From the IMG/VR virus record IMGVR_UViG_2541047762_000007: a stretch of DNA of 37,860 bases. One strand, written 5' to 3'. This DNA is from a virus. Lineage: Duplodnaviria > Heunggongvirae > Uroviricota > Caudoviricetes. A model generated the notes under the pieces. It was not told where the DNA came from and did not search any database. It saw only the letters and a program-made list of their open reading frames with translations. Each line of letters opens with the position of its first letter. The stretch's first letter is position 1. Shown here in pieces: positions 1,035-32,477 of the stretch. Made by a program: the position numbers and the translations under genes.

Positions 1035-1607
1035 TTACATTTCAGGTTGCGTTATGACAGTCCCAACAGGGTGGTAGCGGTAGATCGTTGACAGTCCAAT
1101 ATCATAGATAATTGCCAGCCGCTTTCTGTCATACCCTTTCTGGAGCAATCTTGCGATCTGCTCATGCTGCTCCTTCGTCAGTTTCGGGCGACGTCCTCCA
1201 ACTCTCCCTTGTGCTCGCGCAGCAGCCAGTCCTGCCAGCGTGCGCTCAACTATCAGTTCACGCTCCATTTCTGCCAGTGCACCCATCATATGAAAAAAGA
1301 ACCTTCCCATCGGAGTGCTGGTATCGATTGAATCCGTCAGACTGCGAAAATTGACACCTTTTGCGCGTAGCTCTTCTGTGAGAGCAATGAGGTGTTTCAT
1401 TCTTCTACCCAACCGATCCAGCTTCCAGACCACCAATGTATCCCCTCTTTTAAGGCACTTTAAAGCGCGTTTCAGGCCTGGTCGTTCCGACTTGGTTCCG
1501 CTCATTTTGTCCTCAAAAATCTGTTCACATCCTGCGCACATTAATGCATTGCGTTGCAAATCTGTGTTTTGGTCATTTGTTGACACACGTATGTAGCCAA
1601 TCAGCAT
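1035..1607 (-). CDS. gin: Gin/Pin/Hin-family serine DNA invertase
   Basis: Translation from the ATG at 1607 (MLIGYIRVSTNDQNTDLQRNAL...GRRPKLT...) closely matches my recollection of Mu Gin and e14 Pin. The ORF-track start at 1736 is probably an upstream artefact. Confidence 0.9.
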   Translation of the reverse strand: MLIGYIRVSTNDQNTDLQRNALMCAGCEQIFEDKMSGTKSERPGLKRALKCLKRGDTLVVWKLDRLGRRMKHLIALTEELRAKGVNFRSLTDSIDTSTPMGRFFFHMMGALAEMERELIVERTLAGLAAARAQGRVGGRRPKLTKEQHEQIARLLQKGYDRKRLAIIYDIGLSTIYRYHPVGTVITQPEM

Positions 1608-1673
1608 TAAAAATACTCCCTTTTGAGTGGTTAAAGTACTGAGATAATGTGGGGAGGATTTGAGAGATAAACG

Positions 1674-1889
1674 TTGGTTTAGGAGAAGGCTCGGCGCTAC
1701 CCGTTGGTGTGCCTGTTCCGTGGCCCACCGCCACACCGCCAGCAGGCTGGTTAAAGTGCGACGGGCGCGCCTTTACAAAAGAACAATATCCTGTTCTGGC
1801 CAGAGTCTACCCGACCCTCCGTCTTCCCGATTTACGCGGTGAGTTTATCCGTGGATGGGACGACGGGCGCAAAGTTGATACAGGACGTA
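1674..1889. repeat. Left inverted repeat of invertible tail-fibre segment (gix-like site at 1664..1687)
   Basis: About 216 bp here is the near-identical reverse complement of 3061..3279. Its outer end (gagataaacgTTGGTTTAGGAGAA) resembles the Gin/Hin crossover half-site consensus. Confidence 0.7.
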
Positions 1890-2191
1890 AGTTGCTGTCC
1901 GCACAAGGGGCAACGCTGTTAAGAACAGCAATGCTGGATTATTATAACCAGGACACTACGGGAACCTCGGGGATAGTCGGCATGGGATTCAACAATGAAG
2001 ATTCCATTACAGACCTTCGTGAGGGCAGCTTTAAAATGCCGGACGGGACAACATTCAGCAATCCTGCCATGGCAATGTCAGACAATGGTATGCAGGCTAC
2101 TATTCTGACCTCTATCAGAAGCGGGTATGCGAAGGGTATCACTGTCAGACCCCGTAGCATTGCACTTAATTACATTGTGAGGGCAGTTTAA
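1709..2191 (+). CDS. Alternative tail-fibre C-terminal cassette (Sv'-like), promoterless in current orientation
   Basis: The first ~60 aa are nearly identical to the region of the 2812..4398 fibre that begins ~150 aa from its C-terminus (PVPWPTATPPAGWL...LRLPDLRGEFIRGWD), then diverge. It lies inside the invertible segment on the opposite strand. Confidence 0.7.
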   Translation: MPVPWPTATPPAGWLKCDGRAFTKEQYPVLARVYPTLRLPDLRGEFIRGWDDGRKVDTGRKLLSAQGATLLRTAMLDYYNQDTTGTSGIVGMGFNNEDSITDLREGSFKMPDGTTFSNPAMAMSDNGMQATILTSIRSGYAKGITVRPRSIALNYIVRAV

Positions 2192-2805
2192 TGAGTAACA
2201 CTGCAGTTCTGGATGAAAACGGTATCGCCACTGTAGCGGGCGATATCACTGTATATCACTATGACGAGGAAACCCGGGAATACACCTCATCCTCTGTGGA
2301 GTATCTCGCCCTTGGGGTGGGTACTCCGGCACATTCGTGCGCCGATGCACCGCCGGAAGCAATTTCGGGTTACGTGGTTTGCCGGACTGCCACGCTGAAC
2401 GGGTGGGAGCATGTGCCTGATCACCGCGGCGAGACGGTATACAGCACGGAGAACGGTAACCCCGTTCTGATTACCCAACCGGGTGATTACCCGGCGGACA
2501 CCACCACAAAACAGCCAGCCACGCCATGGGATACCTGGAACGGTGAGGCGTGGGTAACCGATACTGAACGGCAGCGAGCCGCAGAACTGGAGGTTGCCAG
2601 ACAGCAACGCCAGCAACGGGTGAAACAGGCGATGGCGTCCGTCGATCTTATCAACCTCAAACTGCGTGCTGGTCGCAGTCTGAAACCAGAAGAAACGGCA
2701 AAACTGAACGCCGTGCTGGATTATATCGACGAGCTGAACGCACTGGATATCAGCAAGGCACCTGAAATCAGCTGGCCGGAAGCGCCACTGGCGCTTGCCG
2801 GCTGA
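2191..2805 (+). CDS. Tail fibre assembly protein (Tfa/U-like)
   Basis: Position directly after the alternative fibre cassette (TAATG overlap), ~200 aa, composition typical of lambda Tfa / Mu U chaperones. Confidence 0.75.
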   Translation: MSNTAVLDENGIATVAGDITVYHYDEETREYTSSSVEYLALGVGTPAHSCADAPPEAISGYVVCRTATLNGWEHVPDHRGETVYSTENGNPVLITQPGDYPADTTTKQPATPWDTWNGEAWVTDTERQRAAELEVARQQRQQRVKQAMASVDLINLKLRAGRSLKPEETAKLNAVLDYIDELNALDISKAPEISWPEAPLALAG

Positions 2806-2811
2806 ACGGTA

Positions 2812-4398
2812 TCACGCCGCCCTCACGATATAGTTAAATGCGATATTGCGGGGGCGAGCTGATACATAAGCCCACCAGTCATATCTTTGTGCACCTTTAG
2901 AGGATGCATCAAATATCCACTTTTTGCCATTTATGACCCCCAGTTGATTAGAGGTTAAAGCGTCACCAAATCCGTATTGTGTAGAGCCGAGCGAACTGAT
3001 ATCTCCGGTATTATTATCATCAAAACCGGATACGATAGTCCCTTCCTGAAATGAAAGTACCGTACGCCCGGTATCAACCTTGCGACCACCGTCCCATCCA
3101 CGGATAAACTCACCGCGCAAATCGGGAAGACGGAGGGTCGGGTAGACTCTGGCCAGAACAGGATATTGTTCTTTGGTGAACGTAGCTCCGTTGCACTGTA
3201 ACCAGCCTGCTGGCGGTGTGGCGGTGGGCCATGGAACCGGTACACCAACAGGCAATGCAGAGCCTTCCCCCAAACCAAGGTAATTGAGGACATCTTTTAT
3301 ACTGCCCTTAGCGATAATAGCGCGACCAATAGCTGTAAGGGTTGCCAGCGCTGCGCGGTCTGCTCCGGTAAAATAAGGCAACCGATCTGCTGCAGTGGCA
3401 AGTCCTGCCAGAGCAGTGAGCGTGGCATCTGCCGGTTGTTTTCCGTTTGCCAGATCGTATGCAGCCTTGACGGCCTTTGGTGTGGCGGCCAGCGTTTCAG
3501 ACGTGCTGTTGATGGCGCTGCTCAATTGTACGGTGCCTTTTGCCGTCAGCGAGGCAGCAGGCACTCCCGTTATCTGACTCCACGGGTGAGTGTGGCTGAC
3601 GGGCGCCTTGCCGGCTGCAAGGTCGTATGCAGCCTTGACGGCCTTTGGTGTGGCGGCCAGCGTTTCAGACGTGCTGTTGATGGCGCTGCTCAATTGTACG
3701 GTGCCTTTTGCCGTCAGCGAGGCAGCAGGCACTCCCGTTATCTGACTCCACGGGTGAGTGTGGCTGACGGGCGCCTTGCCGGCTGCAAGGTCGTATGCAG
3801 CCTTGACGGCCTTTGGTGTGGCGGCCAGCGTTTCAGACGTGCTGTTGATGGCACTGCTCAGTTGTACGATCCCTTTACGGGTCGTTGTTGCATCCTGGGC
3901 TGTGTATTTTCCCCGGGCCAGATCATACGCGATTTTCACAGCCTTCGGCGTGGCAGCCTCAGTTTCTGATTGACTGTCCGTGGCACTGCTCAGCTGTACG
4001 GTGCCTTTTGCCGTCAGCGAGGCAGCAGGCACTCCCGTTATCTGACTCCACGGGTGAGTGTGACTGACGGGTGCCTTGCCGGCTGCAAGGTCGTATGCAG
4101 CCTTGACGGCTTTTGGTGTGGCGGCCAGCGTTTCAGAGGTGCTGTTGGTGGCACTGCTCAGTTGGGTGAACCCCTTAGCTGTCAGTGTCGCGTCCGGGTG
4201 GTTACGGGAACGTACGTGTTCAGCCAGTGACTGTGCGGCTTCCTCCGTTTTTTTCTTCAGCCATTTCGTCCTGTTTGCCAGTTGCCGGGGGGCTCGATTT
4301 GATATCCCGTCTGCACCACCCAGAACCGGATCTGATGTCTCCAGTTGATAGATATTTTCTTCCCACTTTTCTGTTTCATTCAGGTTTCCCATAATCAA
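2812..4398 (-). CDS. Tail fibre protein with internal tandem repeats
   Basis: 528-aa ORF with repeated fibre motifs (TAKGTVQLSSAxxSTSETLAATPKAVKAAYDLA, SHTHPW). C-terminal part lies inside the invertible segment. Position matches Mu S. Confidence 0.9.
   Translation of the reverse strand: MIMGNLNETEKWEENIYQLETSDPVLGGADGISNRAPRQLANRTKWLKKKTEEAAQSLAEHVRSRNHPDATLTAKGFTQLSSATNSTSETLAATPKAVKAAYDLAAGKAPVSHTHPWSQITGVPAASLTAKGTVQLSSATDSQSETEAATPKAVKIAYDLARGKYTAQDATTTRKGIVQLSSAINSTSETLAATPKAVKAAYDLAAGKAPVSHTHPWSQITGVPAASLTAKGTVQLSSAINSTSETLAATPKAVKAAYDLAAGKAPVSHTHPWSQITGVPAASLTAKGTVQLSSAINSTSETLAATPKAVKAAYDLANGKQPADATLTALAGLATAADRLPYFTGADRAALATLTAIGRAIIAKGSIKDVLNYLGLGEGSALPVGVPVPWPTATPPAGWLQCNGATFTKEQYPVLARVYPTLRLPDLRGEFIRGWDGGRKVDTGRTVLSFQEGTIVSGFDDNNTGDISSLGSTQYGFGDALTSNQLGVINGKKWIFDASSKGAQRYDWWAYVSARPRNIAFNYIVRAA
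3061..3290. repeat. Right inverted repeat of invertible tail-fibre segment (gix-like site at 3265..3290)
   Basis: Reverse complement matches 1674..1889. TTCCCCCAAACCAAGG at 3265..3280 is the inverted partner of the left site. Confidence 0.7.
3440..4200. repeat. 168-bp (56-aa) tandem repeats within tail fibre gene
   Basis: Three near-identical units are in register at ~3455, 3623 and 3791, followed by two more diverged units. The plus-strand shadow ORF 3436..3969 shows the same period. Confidence 0.85.
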
Positions 4399-4973
4399 CT
4401 GCTCCCGTGGTTATAACTGCCATCATGGATGGCAGTATTGTTATAGCGAATGGCCACAGACTGATACTCCAGGCTGGCCAGATGGCAGCGGGCCGGTGCA
4501 AATGCAGCCAGCGTCTGACGCAGCATCGCGGCCTGATCGTTAGTAATGGGCTGTTTCAGAATAACGCGATAAACTGCCCAGGCGGCTGCATCTCCATGAA
4601 CAAACAGTCCGTTATAGCTGCGATTGCCGTCGTAACTGAGACGACCTGTGCCTTCAATCAGATCCACTTCACCAAAGCCAAAACGGCGGATAACTTCCCG
4701 GATTGACCACGGCGTCCCTTTATACCGGTGCAGTTCGATGGCTGCTTTTATAAGCATGCGGCGAACATCGTCCGATTCCGCCAGCTCCCAGCCATCGCCA
4801 GACAGTGAGAACTGCTCGCCCAGCCATGGCAGCGCGGAACTGTCGACGATATCGACGAGAAAGACCATCAGTACGCTCAGGTCGATGTTATCCAGCCGTC
4901 CTGCCAGTCTTCCCAGCGTCCTGAGACTGATATCACCCTCAAGCGGTGGCGGGAGTTGTAATGGCTCAGTCAT
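4395..4973 (-). CDS. Baseplate protein (P2 gpI / Mu gp48-like)
   Basis: Size and position between the baseplate J-like gene and the tail fibre; overlaps its neighbours. Confidence 0.7.
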   Translation of the reverse strand: MTEPLQLPPPLEGDISLRTLGRLAGRLDNIDLSVLMVFLVDIVDSSALPWLGEQFSLSGDGWELAESDDVRRMLIKAAIELHRYKGTPWSIREVIRRFGFGEVDLIEGTGRLSYDGNRSYNGLFVHGDAAAWAVYRVILKQPITNDQAAMLRQTLAAFAPARCHLASLEYQSVAIRYNNTAIHDGSYNHGSS

Positions 4974-6069
4974 CAGACACTCCAGTCATGTTAAGAGTGA
5001 TTGCCGTACAGTTTGCCCATTCGTTTTCTGCCACCACCCGCAGTGCCGGTGTCACCAGTTCAACCTGGTACACCCCGGAAACGGACAATGCACTGATAAT
5101 CTGGCTGGGGACAATATCGCGCCCCAGCGTGGCGGCACGTGATGCCACCCAGTTCTGTATGGCGCTGTTAGCGGCATCTTTTACAGACCTGGCATCCTGA
5201 TCACGATAGATCGTAATCCTGGCTTCAATGGTGTAATCCACCTTCACTGGTGTTTTAGCCCGCACTGTATCAGTGAGTGGCCTGACTTTCTCATCAGAGC
5301 AGAAACTCTCTACCAGCGTGAGAACACCGCCGTCCGGCAGACCGGTACTGAGCAGCGGATACAGATCTACGGTCCCGGGAACCGGGGAAAGCACAGCAAC
5401 ATCGACAATGTTGGGATGGGCCTGCATGGCATGAAAGCGGTATGCGCCACGGCTTCCGGCATTGGTGAATGACTCCGGGGCCAGCCTGATACGCTCCCGG
5501 AGCCTGTCATCGTCTTCCTGTTCTGAACCGCCGGAACTGGCCGTCAGATTGCTCACCAGCAGGTCGACGTTATCAATCTCATCGAGTAACTGACTGACCT
5601 GCGCAGGTTGCCAGCCGTTACCAGCGGTACCGGGTTCGGTACAGGTGGACGTGACATTGACCAGCAGCAATCCGGCCTTCAGTACCACATCTGTATCGGT
5701 GGCAAAAATAACGCTGTCGGAAGCGCTGACGCGGGTGCCTGCCGGGATCAGCACATCAATGGCCAGTGCCTCATCTACGGAGAACTGGAGCGTGGTGGTG
5801 GCAGGCTGCGCGGCAAGACGGTATACACCGACCAGTTCACCGAGGTAATCAATCATCGGCTCACGGGCAAAGGCGACCAGATTCTGCTTTGCTGCCTCCT
5901 GTACCGCAACCCTGACCAGCATTTCGCGATAGGCCCACAGATCAATCAGCAGACGTTCTGCCTGTGCCGGGTACAGCGTTTTGCCGGTATCCGCTTCATA
6001 CTTCGCAATCATTTCTGCCGTGATTTTGTCGGCATCGCGTTCAATAAAATCGGGTTCTGTCAGCGCCAT
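4966..6069 (-). CDS. Baseplate J-like protein (Mu gp47 / P2 gpJ-like)
   Basis: 367 aa, position and composition match baseplate J family; translationally coupled to neighbours. Confidence 0.8.
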   Translation of the reverse strand: MALTEPDFIERDADKITAEMIAKYEADTGKTLYPAQAERLLIDLWAYREMLVRVAVQEAAKQNLVAFAREPMIDYLGELVGVYRLAAQPATTTLQFSVDEALAIDVLIPAGTRVSASDSVIFATDTDVVLKAGLLLVNVTSTCTEPGTAGNGWQPAQVSQLLDEIDNVDLLVSNLTASSGGSEQEDDDRLRERIRLAPESFTNAGSRGAYRFHAMQAHPNIVDVAVLSPVPGTVDLYPLLSTGLPDGGVLTLVESFCSDEKVRPLTDTVRAKTPVKVDYTIEARITIYRDQDARSVKDAANSAIQNWVASRAATLGRDIVPSQIISALSVSGVYQVELVTPALRVVAENEWANCTAITLNMTGVSDD

Positions 6070-6407
6070 AGCAGCTCCTGAGTCCGGGTCTGTCCGTCTG
6101 AGCCTTTCCAGCTCACCCGGAGCGTAAGATGTTCGCCGTCGACGGCGGGTTTAACTGACATAAGCTGGCAGCGGGGCTCCCAGCGCCGGATGGCATCGAC
6201 GGATTCGCGCACCACATGCGGAATGGCCCGGTCTACAGGCCAGTCGATATAAAGATGCAGATTGCTGCCGAACTCCGGGCGATGCGGGTCGCTGCCGCGG
6301 GGAGTCCGCAGGATAATTTGAATCGCCTGCCGGATATCATCCAGCCCCCGGACAATTTCGCCGGGAGCCTGCAGAGTTGGTTGCCAGAATACTGAGGTCG
6401 TTTTCAT
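6060..6407 (-). CDS. Baseplate wedge protein (gpW/gp25-like)
   Basis: 115 aa with gpW/gp25-like features (GSDPHRPEFGS...), located upstream of the J-like gene. Confidence 0.75.
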   Translation of the reverse strand: MKTTSVFWQPTLQAPGEIVRGLDDIRQAIQIILRTPRGSDPHRPEFGSNLHLYIDWPVDRAIPHVVRESVDAIRRWEPRCQLMSVKPAVDGEHLTLRVSWKGSDGQTRTQELLWR

Positions 6408-6532
6408 GGAGGCAGTATTGCCCCCGTGCGGGAACGCTGATATTAAAGGGATTTAAAAAAACGTAAAATGGTTGAGCTTATTGAAAAACAGCCAATATTG
6501 TTAATTAATAATCACCTGAAAACGGAGGTTTT

Positions 6533-6718
6533 ATGAAGAAAAAATTTTTTCAGATGACAAATAAAAGTCATTTCATTAACCCGGAACACATCGTTGAAGC
6601 ATACTTTACAGTTAAAGGTACTTTCGAAATAACACTTTCAACAGGTAAGAAAATTCAACTCGACGAAAGCGAAAGCAAGTATCTGATGGATGTATTTGAT
6701 TTTGAGAAGCCACTCTAA
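6533..6718 (+). CDS. Small AT-rich moron ORF (61 aa), unknown function
   Basis: Antisense to the surrounding baseplate operon. Strong SD (ACGGAGG) 5 nt before the ATG, AT-rich upstream region with -10-like TAAAAT, and an intrinsic terminator immediately downstream. Confidence 0.55.
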   Translation: MKKKFFQMTNKSHFINPEHIVEAYFTVKGTFEITLSTGKKIQLDESESKYLMDVFDFEKPL

Positions 6719-6727
6719 TTGCCAGTG

Positions 6728-6751
6728 AGGCCGCCCGGTGCGGCCTTTTTT
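6728..6751 (+). terminator. Rho-independent terminator of the moron ORF
   Basis: GC hairpin AGGCCGC-CCGGT-GCGGCCT followed by a T-run (6746..6751). Confidence 0.75.
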
Positions 6752-6755
6752 CATA

Positions 6756-7352
6756 TCAATGAGAATGGTGATTAGAGTTAGAGCCATCAGACAGCATACT
6801 GCCCGTGGCATGGGCATTCCCTTTAATCTCGATATTGCCATGGATGGTCGCGGTAACACCTTTACCACCAGAACCCGCCATGCCTCCTTCGTAAATCAGC
6901 TTTCCCCTGACACGCAGCTCTCCGGTAAGTTCGGTTTCCGGTGCGTCAATCGTGGCTTTCTGTGTTTTCAATACCACATCAGCACCACACTCAATGACAA
7001 TATGCTCAATGCCGCCCCGGATGGTCAGAGTGTGCGTCTTCCGGTTGTAGCTGTACTCTGCACCATCAGCAAACCGGGTTCCCCGGATATTTTTGTCACT
7101 GAACGGTGGTTTATCGACGTCTGAATACACCGCGCCCAGAATAACACCATCCTCGCCGTTGGCATCGAGCAGCACCTCAACCTGCTCCCCCACGTCAGGG
7201 AGCCAGTAATCTTTGTTATCCTGGGTATTGCGCTGCAGCACGTTAAGCCAGTTTGTGCGCAGGTTATCGCATTCAGGCAGACGAACGCGGGCCTGAACCC
7301 TGTCGGCATCAACGGCACTGACCGTACCGACCTGACGAGTGACACCAGTCAT
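6756..7352 (-). CDS. Baseplate spike/hub protein (P2 gpV / Mu gp45-like)
   Basis: 198 aa with glycine-rich, His-rich C-terminus typical of gpV spikes; sits between the gpD-like and gpW-like genes. Confidence 0.75.
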   Translation of the reverse strand: MTGVTRQVGTVSAVDADRVQARVRLPECDNLRTNWLNVLQRNTQDNKDYWLPDVGEQVEVLLDANGEDGVILGAVYSDVDKPPFSDKNIRGTRFADGAEYSYNRKTHTLTIRGGIEHIVIECGADVVLKTQKATIDAPETELTGELRVRGKLIYEGGMAGSGGKGVTATIHGNIEIKGNAHATGSMLSDGSNSNHHSH

Positions 7353-8503
7353 TTTTTCTTCTCCTTAATCACCGTCGATGTACTGCCATCCGGGTGATAA
7401 ACCGTGAGTTTCTGAGTTTTTTGTTTTTTCCCTCTTGTGACTGGCCCCCGTGCCACTTCCAGCTCTGTGGTGTAGCCGCTGTTACGGTCAAACGCATGGC
7501 GGGCAGTGGTTATGAGCCATGGCCCGGATAACTGCCCAAAACTCACCAGTTCAATTTTGTTGCCTGCTGTCAGTTGAGGTGTTCCCGTCAGCGTCAGGGA
7601 GCCGTTCTGCTGGTATTCGTTATGTCTGGCCAGTGCTGAATCCGCTTTAATCCGGGCACTGTCCGGGTCGCTGACGCGGCTGTTAACTTTAAGTGAGTCA
7701 GCGCTGGTAACCTTACCACCTTTGAGCTTTTTGTCGCTTTCACGGGTACCACCATCAGCTTCGTAGACGATCAGTTTTTTACTGCTGCTTTTCTGGTGTT
7801 TTACCTTTGCAGATTTATAGACCCGGTTGATGGTGTCACGCAGGGAAAAGCGGGCCACATCCTGCGGTTTTAACTGCCTGACCGGCTCCTGACTGCGCAG
7901 TGTGGCCAGATGAGAAAAAATCAGCTGGTCACTGACCACTTTCACTGCATAACCATACTCGCTGGCCAGCCGGCGCAGAAAACCCACGTCGGTTTCAGCA
8001 TACTGGGTCACCCGGTCGATTCTGATGGACTCAATGCTGCCCACCAGTTTCAGCCGGTGCTTTCTGGCAATCCGCCCCGCAACAGCTGCCAGCGTGGTGT
8101 TCTCAAAACCACGACTGGTTTTAGTCCGCAGGGCACTGTTAACCGAGGTGGCCACCCCACGGATAGAAACAACGGAAGCGGGCGAACTCACTTCGATCTC
8201 GTCTATAGAGAACGTACCGCAGGACAGCAGCTTCTCGCCCTGATAGCCCATTTTCAGCGTCAGCGTGTCACCCTTGCCCGGATACCATTTATCCAGCCAG
8301 CGGCCATCGGTGTCGTCCAGCTCCACCTCAATGGTATCGGACTCATTTTTGATGTTATCGCTCCAGGTCACACGGGTGACATAAGGCGCGATATCAGAGG
8401 TGATGTTTTTCTGCAGATACCACAGAGTGAACACCGGTGTCAGCACATCGCTGACGCCGGTTAACGCTGATGTGACTTGCGCAGTGCTGTTTATCTCAGC
8501 CAT
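7349..8503 (-). CDS. Baseplate hub / late control D-like protein (Mu gp44-like)
   Basis: 384 aa, position downstream of tape measure and upstream of the spike gene. Confidence 0.75.
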   Translation of the reverse strand: MAEINSTAQVTSALTGVSDVLTPVFTLWYLQKNITSDIAPYVTRVTWSDNIKNESDTIEVELDDTDGRWLDKWYPGKGDTLTLKMGYQGEKLLSCGTFSIDEIEVSSPASVVSIRGVATSVNSALRTKTSRGFENTTLAAVAGRIARKHRLKLVGSIESIRIDRVTQYAETDVGFLRRLASEYGYAVKVVSDQLIFSHLATLRSQEPVRQLKPQDVARFSLRDTINRVYKSAKVKHQKSSSKKLIVYEADGGTRESDKKLKGGKVTSADSLKVNSRVSDPDSARIKADSALARHNEYQQNGSLTLTGTPQLTAGNKIELVSFGQLSGPWLITTARHAFDRNSGYTTELEVARGPVTRGKKQKTQKLTVYHPDGSTSTVIKEKKK

Positions 8504-8706
8504 GGGGCAATATCCTCTTCTGTACGGGCTTCTTCAGCCTCAATCACCGGGATCAGTAACAACAGCCCGGAGGGCAGCACCGGCGTGATGGCCACGTGCG
8601 GATTGGCGGCAATAATCCGGGGATAGCCCAGCGGGTCACCGTAGTACTGCCATGCCAGCGAATCCCAGCGCTCTCCGTCACGGGTAACATGTTCAAGAAA
8701 CATCAC
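8491..8706 (-). CDS. Tail protein X-like (LysM-like)
   Basis: 71 aa, pattern resembles P2 gpX (W..YYG.P......ANP). Confidence 0.55.
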   Translation of the reverse strand: MMFLEHVTRDGERWDSLAWQYYGDPLGYPRIIAANPHVAITPVLPSGLLLLIPVIEAEEARTEEDIAPWLR

Positions 8707-9587
8707 ACACTCCTCGTCAGTATTCTGGCGGCCACTGCACTTAATCCCGGAGACATGCGGTTGAATGCTGTGCCGGCGGCGTTAAGCTGCCCGGAAACGG
8801 TATCCAGAGCACCTGCAATATTTCTTTTGTCCACACCACTCAGCGCAGACTGTGCCTGCTGTACATACGTGGCTGCTTCGCTGGCTGTTCTGGCCAGACT
8901 GATGGCATCGGGCATGGATTCAGAGAGTGCGTTAAACGCCGGAACACTTTTCCCCAGAGCCCCGGAGATATTACCCAGTCCGCTCATCAGCCCCGGCACA
9001 CGGGTCAGTGCGACAACGGGGTTATCCTTCATTTTCTGTGTCACCCGAACGGCGCTGATAGTGGTCTGGAGTACAGACTGCGCCTGTTTCGCATAGTTGA
9101 CGCCGTTGCGGATGAACTGCGCCACCCCTGAAGGTGAAGGAATGGCACCGGAGACCGCCCCGACACCCGGGAGCTTCGTGCGTATTGCCGGTGGTTGCAG
9201 AGGATTTTTCGGGTCACCGGTGTATTCCCGGAGAGACACGGTGGCACTGACAGCCAGCACGTTGCCGGTACTGTCAGTCTGCTCGCTGGTTGCAGTCACA
9301 TCGGTAATCACGAACCAGCCGCGATAGTCACCGTTGCCGAAGACCAGCGCCAGTGCCTGATGGGCTTTCATGGCTGTTCGCAGTCTCGCCAGCTCCACAT
9401 CGGGTACACAATAATGCTGATGGAAAACCAGAGTTATCTGGATTTCGTCCAGCCTGTCGCCGACGAATTGCAGGCCAGGCTTCCCCCCGATGCGGGCATG
9501 CTCCGCATAATCGACGCCGAACGTGGCCTCGAAGCCGTCCCAGTAGGTAATCAGCTCAAACTCAATATCACCCAGTACGGCAAACAT
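8703..9587 (-). CDS. Tail protein (Mu N / DNA circulation protein-like position)
   Basis: 294 aa, immediately downstream of the tape measure gene and coupled to it. Confidence 0.55.
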   Translation of the reverse strand: MFAVLGDIEFELITYWDGFEATFGVDYAEHARIGGKPGLQFVGDRLDEIQITLVFHQHYCVPDVELARLRTAMKAHQALALVFGNGDYRGWFVITDVTATSEQTDSTGNVLAVSATVSLREYTGDPKNPLQPPAIRTKLPGVGAVSGAIPSPSGVAQFIRNGVNYAKQAQSVLQTTISAVRVTQKMKDNPVVALTRVPGLMSGLGNISGALGKSVPAFNALSESMPDAISLARTASEAATYVQQAQSALSGVDKRNIAGALDTVSGQLNAAGTAFNRMSPGLSAVAARILTRSV

Positions 9588-27062: not shown

Positions 27063-27653
27063 CTAAAAAAAGAAGTGTATTATTGCCCAAACAGCTATAA
27101 CGATGATTCCCAGCCCAAGAGCCGATTCTAACTTATCTTTGGCAGTCATTTTTACTGTTGTAGCGGGCGCAGGTAAGTCTTGCTGCTGTGGATTTTCTGT
27201 TAGTTGTTTACGAGAAGAAACATCGCCCCTGTTAGTTTGCTTCATGTTGATTACAGATGCGTTATGGGCATTATCAGCAGCAATTGACTGAAGTTTTACA
27301 AAAGTTTTTGAATCTGTTTTAGCCAGAAGTAACCTATTTCCCGTAAACATTGCCTTAAAAGTGATAGTTTTTTTCGTCTTGTCCGCCGCACCAAGCAAAC
27401 CTCCAATGACCAACCCTGCACCACCAAAGATTAATCCACCAAGCAAACCTGCGCCTGCCGCCTTACCTATACGGCTTTCCTCTTCACTATCCGCAAGTTC
27501 AATCGATAAAAGCTCTTCTTTCAGATTTAATACAATATTTTCAGGAAAGCCTTGTTTTGGTTTTTTGGCAAACACGATGGTACCGAACCCCATGCTTGCC
27601 CACCCTTTAGGAAAACTTCCTGCGATAACCTGAATCCCTGCCATGTTCATCAC
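27063..27653 (-). CDS. Glycine-zipper membrane protein, unknown function
   Basis: 196 aa, AT-rich codons, central GxxxG-rich hydrophobic region (AAGAGLLGGLIFGGAGLVIGGLLGAA) and C-terminal transmembrane helix. Confidence 0.55.
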   Translation of the reverse strand: MMNMAGIQVIAGSFPKGWASMGFGTIVFAKKPKQGFPENIVLNLKEELLSIELADSEEESRIGKAAGAGLLGGLIFGGAGLVIGGLLGAADKTKKTITFKAMFTGNRLLLAKTDSKTFVKLQSIAADNAHNASVINMKQTNRGDVSSRKQLTENPQQQDLPAPATTVKMTAKDKLESALGLGIIVIAVWAIIHFFF

Positions 27654-27734
27654 CTTTTACATTAAAATTTCAGAACGCAGCATGATGCCGCCTTTGTCTT
27701 TTTTCTGATCCCATGGTAATTCAGCTGTTATTTT

Positions 27735-28721
27735 CTATTTAAGAATAAAACGGTACTTACTGTCAGGAGTGCTTTGCTGATCAAGTAGCAGTGAACGACA
27801 TGGAGCAGTCAAAACCCGAGCATAACTACCATCAGGGCTTATGTTAATGTAACAAACCTTGCCCTTAACACTATAATTTTCGGGGACGGATGCCTTTGCT
27901 GATACAGTAAATTTAAGGGTATGCCAGCCCGTTTTTTGCTTGTAGCTTGAAACCGAATGGAAATCATCTGAGTACTTATTTAACCCTGGAAACATGCTGC
28001 GCAGTGCGGGGATGGAATCTTCTATTATTTTATCGTTGGTTTTAATGTTAAAAACGCTGGTTTCAGTAGAAGCTACTGCTTTGGCATTTCCCCATTTACC
28101 AGCGAACACAATCATTCCCACGAAAAATATTGCTACAAGAACTAACACTCCCCCCAACACTACTACATGAGGCTTCCGGCTTCTGGTTGGTACAGTTGCG
28201 ACTGATTTTGCACCGCTTTCCGATGGAGGTGATAGAGTTTTACTCTCATCACGAATATTCAGCAGATCATCAAAATAACCAAACACAGCCTGCAACTGCT
28301 CTTTGTCTAGGCCTTTAAGATGGGTTGTACCGAAATGCTTCAGACAGTATCTGTCACGGTCAAGACGATACCCAGGGTCAGTAAGCGCCATTATTTTGCT
28401 GACCAGAAGATTACAGTCCTTCATATTCTGGATCTGTTGTGCATATCTCTGAAGGATCTCAACCGCACCATGATAATCAGCCGCAGTCATTTCATTAACT
28501 GTTTTGGTATTAAGTTTCGTGTGGATCGTCATCCATAGCTCGCGCTTACTTTCCCCCAGATCAACCAATTCATCCATCAATCTGTGTAAATCGCGTTTTT
28601 GCAGCAACGAAATTGGTTGCTGGGCCGAAGGAAGTATGTCAGCAGAATAGTTATGAATGGTAACATCACCGCTGACAACGTTACCCACATCCCCGTTAAC
28701 TGTTTGCTTCTCTTTACTCAT
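27735..28721 (-). CDS. Bitopic membrane protein co-transcribed with repressor (candidate superinfection-exclusion/defence protein)
   Basis: 328 aa, start overlaps repressor stop. Single transmembrane helix (HVVVLGGVLVLVAIFFVGMIVFAGKW) splits an ~185-aa N-terminal domain from an ~120-aa C-terminal domain. N-terminal motif GDVGNVVSGDVTI echoes the repressor C-terminus. Confidence 0.6.
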   Translation of the reverse strand: MSKEKQTVNGDVGNVVSGDVTIHNYSADILPSAQQPISLLQKRDLHRLMDELVDLGESKRELWMTIHTKLNTKTVNEMTAADYHGAVEILQRYAQQIQNMKDCNLLVSKIMALTDPGYRLDRDRYCLKHFGTTHLKGLDKEQLQAVFGYFDDLLNIRDESKTLSPPSESGAKSVATVPTRSRKPHVVVLGGVLVLVAIFFVGMIVFAGKWGNAKAVASTETSVFNIKTNDKIIEDSIPALRSMFPGLNKYSDDFHSVSSYKQKTGWHTLKFTVSAKASVPENYSVKGKVCYINISPDGSYARVLTAPCRSLLLDQQSTPDSKYRFILK

Positions 28722-29179
28722 CTTCTCTTGGTATTTTTGTTCATTATTCCACCTGTTCCTATGGTTACGTTACCTTTGATAACATTCCCCAGAACATCTC
28801 CATGAATAACCTGTTCCGCCCGTTCTCTGGAGGAGCCAGTAGTCAAGGCCGACAAAACTGAACCTTTGACCTGTAATGGTGCCTGCCGGTAGTGCTGCAG
28901 TAACTCCATTTCATCACGTGATAAAGTTATACCTGATGACTCCCCGGTAAGAATGAACTGTACATTGGCCCCAATTCTTGCAAAGGCTGCAAGTAACTCA
29001 CCTCCGGGAACAGCAACCCCTCGTTCATATTTCCCCCACATTTCTCTTGAAACGCCACAAAGGGCTGCTACTTCAGCCTGCTTGAGTGATAACCGCGAAC
29101 GCTCAGCTTTGAACCGCGACGCGCAAAGAGAATCAAAATTCACATAAACCTCATTGACAATGAGAACAATAGTTCTCAT
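28718..29179 (-). CDS. XRE/Cro-C1-type HTH repressor (immunity repressor candidate)
   Basis: HTH segment LSLKQAEVAALCGVSREMWGKYERG; divergent from the early operon. True start may be the GTG at 29143, since operator-like palindromes cover 29150..29179. Confidence 0.75.
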   Translation of the reverse strand: MRTIVLIVNEVYVNFDSLCASRFKAERSRLSLKQAEVAALCGVSREMWGKYERGVAVPGGELLAAFARIGANVQFILTGESSGITLSRDEMELLQHYRQAPLQVKGSVLSALTTGSSRERAEQVIHGDVLGNVIKGNVTIGTGGIMNKNTKRR

Positions 29180-30707: not shown

Positions 30708-32477
30708 ATGAATGCTGCCCTGACTGAACGACTGGTTTATGTCGCCCGCGCGGCACGTGACGCGGGGCATGGTAAACGCGGTGCAATATACGACGCTGCC
30801 TGTGCTGAACTTGGCATGTCCCGCGCCACTCTGCTGCGCAGGCTGAAGGAGGTCTCTGTGACTGATAAACGCAAAAAACGCGCCGATGCCGGGCGCAGCG
30901 CCCTGACCCGCGACGAAGCCGCGCTGATATCTGCCACACTGCGTGAGGCCACCCGCAAGAACGGTAAGCGTCTCTATTCCATCGCGGATGCAGTGGAAAC
31001 CCTGCGGGCTAACGGCTTTATCTCCGCAGGCAGAACAGATGAAACCACCGGTGAGTTTTTCCCGTTGTCCGAAGATGCCATCAGCCGAGCCCTGCGTAAC
31101 TATGGCCTGCACCCGGAACAACTGGATGCCCCTGCACCACATACTGAAGTGGCCAGTCTGCATCCCAATCATGTCTGGCAGATTGATGCCTCGCTCTGCA
31201 CGCTTTACTACCTGAGTAATGGACACAAAGGACTGCAGGTGATGGACAGCGCGAAGTTCTACAAGAACAAGCCCGCTAACCTTGCCCGTATCGCCAGTGA
31301 CCGCGTGTGGAGTTACGAGATTACCGACCATGCCAGCGGCTGGATTTACGTTGAGTATGTGACGGGTGCGGAATCCGGTGAGAACCTGTGTTCTGTGCTT
31401 ATCAACGCCATGCAGGAGCGTGGCGGCGCAGACGTGCTGCACGGCGTGCCAAAAATACTCTATCTCGACCCCGGCTCGGCAAACACCGCGGGTATGACGA
31501 AAAACATGTGCCGCTCACTGGGCATTGACCTGATAGCGCACAAGCCGCATAACGCCCGCGCCACCGGACAGGTGGAAAAGGCGCGTGACATTATCGAACG
31601 CAAGCTGGAGCCGGGTCTGAAGTTCCGGCCGGTTCACAGTCTGGAAGAACTCAACGCGCTGGCCGCGAAATGGCGCAGCCACTTTAACGCCACGGCTGTT
31701 CACAGCCGCCACGGTAAAACCCGCACGGATATCTGGCTGAAGATTACTACTGAGCAGCTGAAAAAAGCGCCTTCCGTTGAGGTATGTCGTGAACTGGCTG
31801 TGGCGGCACCAGAACTCCGCAAAGTCACGCCAAAACTTCGTGTCTCGTTCCGGGGCACTGAATTTGACGTATCAACGGTACCGGGCGTACTGGTCGGTGA
31901 AAAACTGATGATTACCCGTAACCCGTGGCGCAGCGATGTGGCACAGGTGGTTCTGACCGGTGAGGACGGCCACGAGACGTTCTTCCTGGTCGAAGAGGTC
32001 AGAAAGAACGAGTTTGGCTTTGCTGAAGGCGCGGCGGTATTTGGCGAAAGTTACAAAGCCCTGCCGGAAACACCGGCGCAGACGGCGGCAAAAGAAACTG
32101 AAGCGCTGGTCACCGGTACAGACAACGCCACAGATGCAGCTGCCGCACGCAAGGCGAAGGCGCTGCCGTTCGGCGGGCGGCTTGACCCGTATAAACATAT
32201 TGATGACGCCACACTTCCGGCCTATATGCCGAAGCGCGGTCAGGCCTCTGACGTACGCGGGCCGCGCACTGAACAACGTCCCATGACTCATGTGGAGGCC
32301 GCGAAAGCCCTGCGCGATAAGTTCAGCGCCGACGGCCTTACCTGGACGCCGGAACATTACCGCCAGTTAACGGCACAGTACCCGGACGGCGTACCGGAAG
32401 CCGCACTGGATGAAGTCATGGCCACGCTGACCACGCCGGCACGCAGCAGTGTTATCAGCATTGTTAACGGCAACTGA
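30708..32477 (+). CDS. DDE transposase (Mu A-like)
   Basis: 589 aa with N-terminal HTH-like region and an integrase-type catalytic core (HVWQIDAS, LYLDPGSANTA, ATGQVEKA); followed by a MuB-like ATPase. Confidence 0.8.
   Translation: MNAALTERLVYVARAARDAGHGKRGAIYDAACAELGMSRATLLRRLKEVSVTDKRKKRADAGRSALTRDEAALISATLREATRKNGKRLYSIADAVETLRANGFISAGRTDETTGEFFPLSEDAISRALRNYGLHPEQLDAPAPHTEVASLHPNHVWQIDASLCTLYYLSNGHKGLQVMDSAKFYKNKPANLARIASDRVWSYEITDHASGWIYVEYVTGAESGENLCSVLINAMQERGGADVLHGVPKILYLDPGSANTAGMTKNMCRSLGIDLIAHKPHNARATGQVEKARDIIERKLEPGLKFRPVHSLEELNALAAKWRSHFNATAVHSRHGKTRTDIWLKITTEQLKKAPSVEVCRELAVAAPELRKVTPKLRVSFRGTEFDVSTVPGVLVGEKLMITRNPWRSDVAQVVLTGEDGHETFFLVEEVRKNEFGFAEGAAVFGESYKALPETPAQTAAKETEALVTGTDNATDAAAARKAKALPFGGRLDPYKHIDDATLPAYMPKRGQASDVRGPRTEQRPMTHVEAAKALRDKFSADGLTWTPEHYRQLTAQYPDGVPEAALDEVMATLTTPARSSVISIVNGN

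Follow-up and report, generated by a model that had tools for sequence, protein, structure and literature searches.

The DNA analysed here, a stretch of 37,860 nt referred to below as the window, is a Mu-like transposable prophage with an rve-family transposase gene (30708-32477) and an HTH repressor-like gene (28718-29179), and its contractile-tail module lies on the minus strand. The closest deposited phage is Escherichia phage PhiKM (99% identity), whose record classes it under Bcepmuvirus. Within the baseplate block (Table 1), the genes for the spike gpV and the wedge gpW are separated by a gap of 348 nt, 6408..6755, which contains a plus-strand ORF of 61 codons at 6533..6718. The ORF list and the Pfam matches of the neighbours agree with the preliminary description, made from the sequence, which had placed a 61-aa ORF on the opposite strand between the spike and wedge genes. 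Its statement that the composition of this ORF contrasts sharply with that of the flanks also stands. The GC content of the gap is 0.32-0.35 versus 0.52-0.63 in the flanks (approximately 0.33 versus 0.57 overall), no other 400-nt block of the window has a lower one, and the coding sequence itself has a GC content of 0.33 and a GC3 of 0.35.

Table 1. Baseplate genes and features of the gpV-gpW (V-W) gap, in window coordinates.
Feature	Position	Strand	Basis or remark
gpU-like gene	8703-9587	-	baseplate block
tail protein X-like gene (LysM)	8491-8706	-	baseplate block
hub gpD-like gene	7349-8503	-	baseplate block
spike gpV, baseplate spike with His-rich tip	6756..7352	-	PF04717 and PF18715 (Phage_spike); phrog_9992
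gpW/gp25, baseplate wedge/sheath initiator	6060..6407	-	PF04965, E=4.8e-12; phrog_43
gpJ	4966-6069	-	baseplate block
gpI	4395-4973	-	baseplate block
native V-W spacer	6408..6460	-	kept in empty sites; 52-nt match in ~600 E. coli genomes; alignment
AT-rich insert, 294 bp	6461..6754		filled/empty alignment; absent from empty-site relatives
best candidate promoter, weak	6472-6501	+	TTGAGC 6472-6477, 18-nt spacer, TATTGT 6496-6501; 8/12, lenient scan
Shine-Dalgarno GGAGG	6524-6528	+	read from sequence; 4 nt ahead of ATG
intrinsic terminator GAGGCCGC-CCGGT-GCGGCCTT followed by T-run	6727-6751	+	terminator scan, folding
imported recombination patch: cassette and diverged flanks	~6410..6790		binned identity to empty-site prophage AR_0085
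gpV 3' end, travelling with the cassette (...DGSNSNHHSH*)	6756..6790	-	nearer filled than empty relatives

Two other regions of the prophage may be recorded here. A second block of low GC content (0.41-0.44) occupies 27063-28721 on the minus strand, together with 28718-29179. It holds two ORFs of 196 and 328 aa that follow immediately downstream of the HTH_31 repressor-like gene, on the same strand. No match was found for either in Pfam or PADLOC; they may be lysogeny-expressed cargo. Near the start of the window, a gene for a Gin-type serine invertase (1035-1736, minus strand) adjoins a tail-collar fragment and a tail-fibre assembly gene (plus strand, 1709-2805), which face the tail-fibre gene at 2812-4398 on the minus strand. 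The region 1035-4398 looks like an invertible host-range switch of the Mu G-segment type.

The 61-codon ORF is part of a compact cassette. Its Shine-Dalgarno (SD) element had been called strong; GGAGG is invariant in four contexts, and ACGGAGGTTTTATG is conserved in every context. The terminator behind the ORF has a stem of 8 bp (6 of them G-C), a loop of 5 nt and a run of six T, folds with -14.3 kcal/mol and is found on the plus strand only. Its z-score against shuffled sequences is just -1.5, yet it is conserved in all four contexts, with an invariant stem and a variable loop. The claim of a promoter of its own is not supported. A strict consensus scan gave no sigma-70 site at 9/12 or better, the best candidates of the lenient scan reach 8/12, and the candidate -10 element is not conserved in other copies of the cassette. 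A -35-like GTTGA element is invariant in the four contexts, and approximately 75 nt upstream of the ORF, including GTTGAAAC...AAAAGCCCC, are conserved between contexts. A search of 6300-6900 against Rfam with permissive filters found no RNA family.

We considered a toxin-antitoxin pair and rejected it because the ORF list contains no partner ORF inside the cassette. Minus-strand ORFs of 76 aa (GTG start, 6638-6868) and 33 aa run over the cassette, and some annotation pipelines call an antisense ORF of 59 aa (3106-3285 in locus L013), in the same place as the 76-aa one; the 59-aa ORF covers the gpV stop and the terminator and runs into the 3' end of the 61-aa gene. All three were treated as spurious, since they overlap the conserved plus-strand coding sequence and terminator; for the ORF at 6638-6868 this is probably correct.

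To compare related prophages, as the preliminary description had proposed, we used a set of 5426 complete E. coli genomes, 636 of which carry this baseplate segment. The gap is filled in one of these (CE0011b, NZ_CP119008) and unfilled in the other 635. In the empty sites that were inspected gpV and gpW lie 54 bp apart, a distance that corresponds to 6408-6460 of the window, and the empty-site relatives span 1307 bp where the window has 1601, and 707 bp where it has 1001. An even sample down the ranking gave 54 sites of exactly the empty span, one filled site and five that match gpW and the spacer alone; two of these five were inspected and contained a different type of gpV in one case and IS2 in the other, with no other cargo. 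Thus every inspected site that spans the gap is either empty or holds this single cassette, and the gap is for this reason not a general cargo hot spot, a reading that we had entertained and rejected. On the late transcript a hairpin, GGAGGCAGTATTGCCCCC, encoded within the native spacer at 6409-6426, directly adjoins the gpW start codon. The hairpin is conserved in empty-site relatives, where its sequence is GGGGGCAGTATTGCCCCC; the window has a single G-to-A change that keeps the pairing as G-U. The hairpin may govern gpW translation.

The insert begins immediately after the gpV stop codon. When the window is compared in bins with the empty-site prophage AR_0085, both sides are fully identical (100%), and identity drops only at approximately 6410-6460 and 6750-6799, with bin values of 96-98% for 6350-6449 and of 80% for 6750-6799. 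Because an empty-site relative is completely identical on both sides, the segment of about 6410-6790 is a patch of recent import. In its last eight codons gpV reads ...DGSNSNHHSH* in the window versus ...DGENSSHHSH* in the empty allele, and the gpV end of the window resembles those of other cassette-bearing phages. The simplest reading of these alignments is that homologous recombination brought in a patch of about 380 bp, the donor being a related phage already in possession of the cassette; one crossover would sit in the conserved V-W spacer and the other within the final ~35 nt of gpV. Neither transposon-type ends nor a target-site duplication was found around the insert, where there are only A-run/T-run pseudo-inverted repeats, and a transposon-type insertion was rejected.

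The segment 6461-6754 is therefore well supported as a genuine, well-documented and fairly ordinary moron. It is inserted between genes that are adjacent, with a 54-bp spacer, in close relatives, its base composition deviates, it brings an SD and a terminator of its own, 635 of the 636 related prophages lack it, and it occurs in non-phage elements. The preliminary description had read the locus in this way and had deduced an independent acquisition, which the empty sites, one of them with identical flanks, now document. Conservation of the ORF as a structural gene across related phages, which it had named as the observation that would speak against a moron, was not seen.

The encoded protein is identical to WP_021530178.1, named "LytTR DNA-binding domain-containing" by PGAP. 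This exact protein is recorded in 81 blocks of the assembly collection, and all ten loci shown have it in the V-W gap. In phages whose gpV is of a different kind, with 170 aa, this gap holds proteins of 85-89% identity, and one of 68% identity adjoins gpV and gpD on a viral contig. A copy of 82% identity is found outside phages, in an element beside copCD-yebY, between a VapE-like primase gene and a resolvase gene. This island copy (locus L007) has its SD, its terminator and ~75 nt of upstream sequence in common with the phage cassette; what is more, it carries a truncated gpV tail, LSNGTNSNHHSH*, with a stop in front. Since the gpV tail is still attached, the island copy came from the V-W gap of a phage. 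The element itself (L007, 2953-12186; also L008-L010) is an integrative element beside copC-copD-yebY. Apart from the 61-aa gene with the truncated gpV tail it contains genes for an IclR-like HTH protein, the VapE-like primase, the resolvase, a Zn-ribbon protein and a PP2C phosphatase/Ser-Thr kinase pair, and is perhaps a satellite-like or defence island which took the cassette from a phage.

More distant homologues (43-66% identity, ~60 aa) are carried by conjugative plasmids of the IncC (Providencia), IncI (E. marmotae) and IncF (E. coli) groups, in accessory regions near replication and partition genes and outside the leading regions. Terminator-like hairpins of different sequence lie downstream of the IncC (L023) and IncF (L025) homologues. 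On the Providencia IncC plasmid (L023, 5998-9073) the homologue, which is 66% identical, is followed by a hypothetical gene of 67 aa; it adjoins an AIPR-family (abortive-infection-type) gene and a recombinase gene, downstream of a Tn3 transposase gene. The family is rare. When 1.84 billion representatives were searched exhaustively with a profile, only three or four true relatives emerged, tblastn against the INPHARED phages gave no homologue, and scanning species-representative genomes with N-terminal peptide patterns gave nothing. The 61-aa protein had no match in PADLOC or NCBIfam and, among PHROGs, weak matches to unannotated families only. The 61-codon ORF is a real gene under purifying selection: pairwise dN/dS of diverged copies is 0.08-0.25 at dS of 0.4-0.8, seventeen columns of the family alignment are invariant, and the copies in phages, island and plasmids, whose identity ranges from 98% down to 40%, have kept their length, start, SD and stop.

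The PGAP name rests on a marginal match to half of a domain. The Pfam LytTR model (PF04397) scores 23.1 bits against a gathering score of 22.6, and of the 98 profile positions only 46-95 are matched, which make up the C-terminal half of the domain. A complete LytTR domain has about 100 aa and ten strands; the protein has 61 aa, and its model shows five strands and one helix. The LytTR signature FhRhHRS, which holds the DNA-contacting R/N/S residues (PMC4227749), aligns with FQMTNKS, where only K11 is invariant, and distant members have VKKGYY in its place. As the complete domain and the signature motif are both missing, the protein should not be filed as a LytTR DNA-binding protein, and the name overstates what it is. 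The family is neutral to acidic (net charge 0 to -4, pI 5.0-6.7), with a mostly basic first half and an acidic second half. Its last seven residues, FDFxxP[L/F] (residues 55-61, window 6697-6715), are strictly conserved from 98% to 40% identity. A membrane superinfection-exclusion protein was also considered and rejected because there is no hydrophobic segment, the maximum Kyte-Doolittle value over 15 residues being below 1.

What remains is a relationship at the level of the fold. The LytTR fold arose by internal duplication of a minimal unit, represented by the monomer of RemA, a protein that forms octameric DNA-wrapping rings (PMC8481266). SwrD, of the FlbD family, shares the subunit fold of the RemA monomer, in which beta1-2 are followed by a 3-10 turn, beta3-5 and an alpha-helix. 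Its rings are hexameric and have a pore built by a conserved Asn15-xxx-Leu/Ile19, plus His18 in Borrelia; SwrD lacks DNA-binding motifs and, in B. subtilis, uses charge-complementary halves for the subunit contacts (PMC13232269). AlphaFold models of the 61-aa proteins, of moderate confidence (pLDDT 69-71), consist of two beta-strands, a short helical turn, three more beta-strands and a C-terminal helix. Their best matches in a viral structure library are small uncharacterised phage proteins and, in addition, one protein annotated as LytTR and one as flagellar; Foldseek against the PDB gave nothing significant (chemokine-like matches at E ~0.3-1). Among PDB sequences the sole noteworthy match is to the C-terminal half of the LytTR domain 3d6w (E=0.03-0.06). 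Seven of nine family members match LytTR at E≤1 and seven match FlbD, all with weak scores.

We compared the profile of the 61-aa family by hhalign with that of 25 real FlbD proteins, all carrying PF06289. The alignment covers 52 columns, near full length (P=3.6e-4, probability 37%), and places the invariant N16 and I20 of the family on the invariant N15 and near-invariant I19 of FlbD, H19 at the position of Borrelia SwrD His18, and ITLSTGKK on ITLTNGKK. The SwrD pore motif in the beta2-beta3 turn is thus present as N-x-x-H-I. On the other hand, the FlbD model of Pfam (PF06289) scores 13 bits against a gathering score of 24.7 (E=0.0076 for the best family member), the invariant Pro-Asp-Thr of the FlbD beta3/beta4 loop is absent from a loop that varies (TVKGT, PVSGR, SVDGK, ENDGT, EATDT), and the genes, instead of being in flagellar operons, are found in the baseplate gap of phages, in an island between primase and resolvase genes and in accessory regions of plasmids. 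For these three reasons we regard the protein as a fold relative of FlbD/SwrD and not as a member. RemA (DUF370) has an Arg-bearing helical insertion between beta3 and beta4 that the family lacks. Homology to the C-terminal half of LytTR and to FlbD is thus suggested by weak but repeated similarity, and the assignment of the 61-aa product as a stand-alone LytTR half-unit of the SwrD(FlbD)/RemA kind is supported, albeit weakly, by profiles and models.

In our judgement the balance tips slightly towards a joint explanation, a recently acquired moron that encodes a SwrD/RemA-type half-unit acting as a homo-oligomeric accessory factor, the last part being our best guess for the protein. According to this explanation the prophage recently gained, by homologous patch recombination with a cassette-bearing relative, a unit made up of SD, ORF and unidirectional terminator, with a weak promoter at most, which lies right after the gpV stop and antisense to the late operon. 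Its product is neither a baseplate part nor a full LytTR transcription factor; it would be a copy of the half-unit that was duplicated into the LytTR fold. Head-to-tail homo-oligomers, dimers or rings, could form through the N16-x-x-H19-I20 turn and the complementary basic and acidic halves, whose opposite charges would suit a ring. As an accessory factor of the lysogenic-conversion type, the protein would bind a host or phage protein, with contacts made by the variable beta3/beta4 loop, the invariant C-terminal FDFxxP[L/F] peptide, or both. The antisense position and the one-direction terminator would permit expression while the late operon is silent, and the onset of late transcription would bring transcriptional interference on the gene. 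Expression from the prophage is what we infer here.

The main rival is a small DNA-binding regulator of the RemA or LytTR type, whose homodimer or ring would restore a LytTR- or RemA-like DNA-binding surface and change how host or prophage genes are transcribed in the lysogen. The Pfam score just over the gathering threshold and the match to 3d6w argue for such a protein, as do the alignment of the invariant K11 with an Arg/Asn of FhRhHRS that contacts DNA in AgrA, the precedent of RemA, a half-unit able to bind DNA as a ring, and the Lys-rich N-terminus (MKKK) kept in most members. The half-domain match, the degenerate signature, the low net charge and pI and the missing Arg-bearing insertion argue against it, however, and the second contact region of the C-terminal half, VSR in typical LytTR domains, is acidic here (LDESE); we consider this regulator unlikely, though deserving of attention. 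Similar doubt applies to an expression confined to infection, from a phage-specific or weak promoter, of an early or mid-cycle anti-defence or host-takeover factor. The empty sigma-70 scan, the conserved ~75 nt upstream and the occurrence of the family in several kinds of mobile element, including conjugative plasmids, all of which enter new hosts, would fit. But an antisense gene in a strongly transcribed late operon would suffer interference and antisense RNA late on, the plasmid copies lie outside the leading regions, near replication and partition genes, and there is no match to known anti-defence families.

Two further readings have little in their favour. That the ORF arose by chance, or is a decaying, functionless remnant in imported AT-rich DNA, might be thought from its very short length, the rarity of the family and the missing functional annotation; the dN/dS values, the invariant columns, the preserved gene boundaries and SD and the recurrence of fold-level signals make it very improbable. 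A baseplate structural or assembly component, e.g. a spike-tip or chaperone protein, is suggested by the position between spike and wedge genes and by nothing else. The gene runs on the opposite strand, occurs in non-phage elements and is missing from 635 of 636 related prophages, one with identical flanks, and from the deposited phage PhiKM; this presence/absence pattern refutes such a role, to which we give almost no credence.

The preferred reading, a homo-oligomeric accessory factor, can be extended to a more daring one, which we would call a long shot: an Enterobacterales-restricted mobile-element family of SwrD/RemA-like rings that display 6-8 copies of FDFxxP[L/F]-COOH as a multivalent decoy or hub. 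This peptide looks similar to the C-terminal tip of SSB, DFDDDIPF, and one possibility is that the ring mimics the SSB tip and sequesters SSB-client proteins; another is that it engages the flagellar stator, as proposed for SwrD. If such a decoy ring existed, the lysogen would gain a conversion phenotype, e.g. phage exclusion or altered motility.

The locus shows the acquisition of a moron caught nearly in the act, the filled and empty prophages being identical outside the patch of ~380 bp, which brought a few codons of the neighbouring spike gene along. Because the scar of the spike gene is still on the cassette in the non-phage island, the direction of that transfer is given as well. The filled and empty prophages form a natural near-isogenic pair for probing one small accessory gene. 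An over-specific database name is corrected, and the group of LytTR half-units (RemA, SwrD) would, on profile and model similarity, be extended to enterobacterial mobile elements. This is a textbook-style moron of unusually well-resolved acquisition that encodes a small, rare, uncharacterised family of plausible structural class. The view of phage genome evolution is unchanged by it, and specialists will hardly be surprised; its practical value therefore hinges on finding a phenotype.

The moron concept was defined for lambdoid phages, and among contractile-tail phages fun(Z), tin and old of P2, AT-rich and non-essential, are analogous. With phage morons the cassette shares its position as an extra gene between neighbours of the relatives, its AT-richness, its own terminator, its place in a tail-gene cluster and its dispensability for the phage. 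It differs in that it is antisense to the operon, has no convincing promoter and can be traced to a homologous-recombination patch of ~380 bp. From LytTR proteins (PF04397; AgrA, ComE, 3d6w) the 61-aa protein differs in being an acidic half domain with a degenerate FhRhHRS and no receiver or sensor partner domain. It differs from RemA by the missing Arg-rich helical insertion between beta3 and beta4 and by its acidic to neutral charge, and no match between the two was found at the sequence level. Neither SwrD nor RemA is known from Enterobacterales, the hosts of the 61-aa gene; SwrD/FlbD belongs to the flagellar operons of Bacillota and spirochaetes. Compared with SwrD/FlbD, the 61-aa protein falls short of the Pfam gathering score, has no P-D-T loop, lies outside flagellar operons and ends in the short, strictly conserved FDFxxP[L/F], whereas SwrD/FlbD has a disordered charged tail. 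The two share a length of ~60 aa, a single domain of predicted beta-beta-turn-beta-beta-beta-alpha topology, the N-x-x-(H)-I/L turn, ITLxxGKK, one basic and one acidic half, and the lack of DNA-binding motifs.
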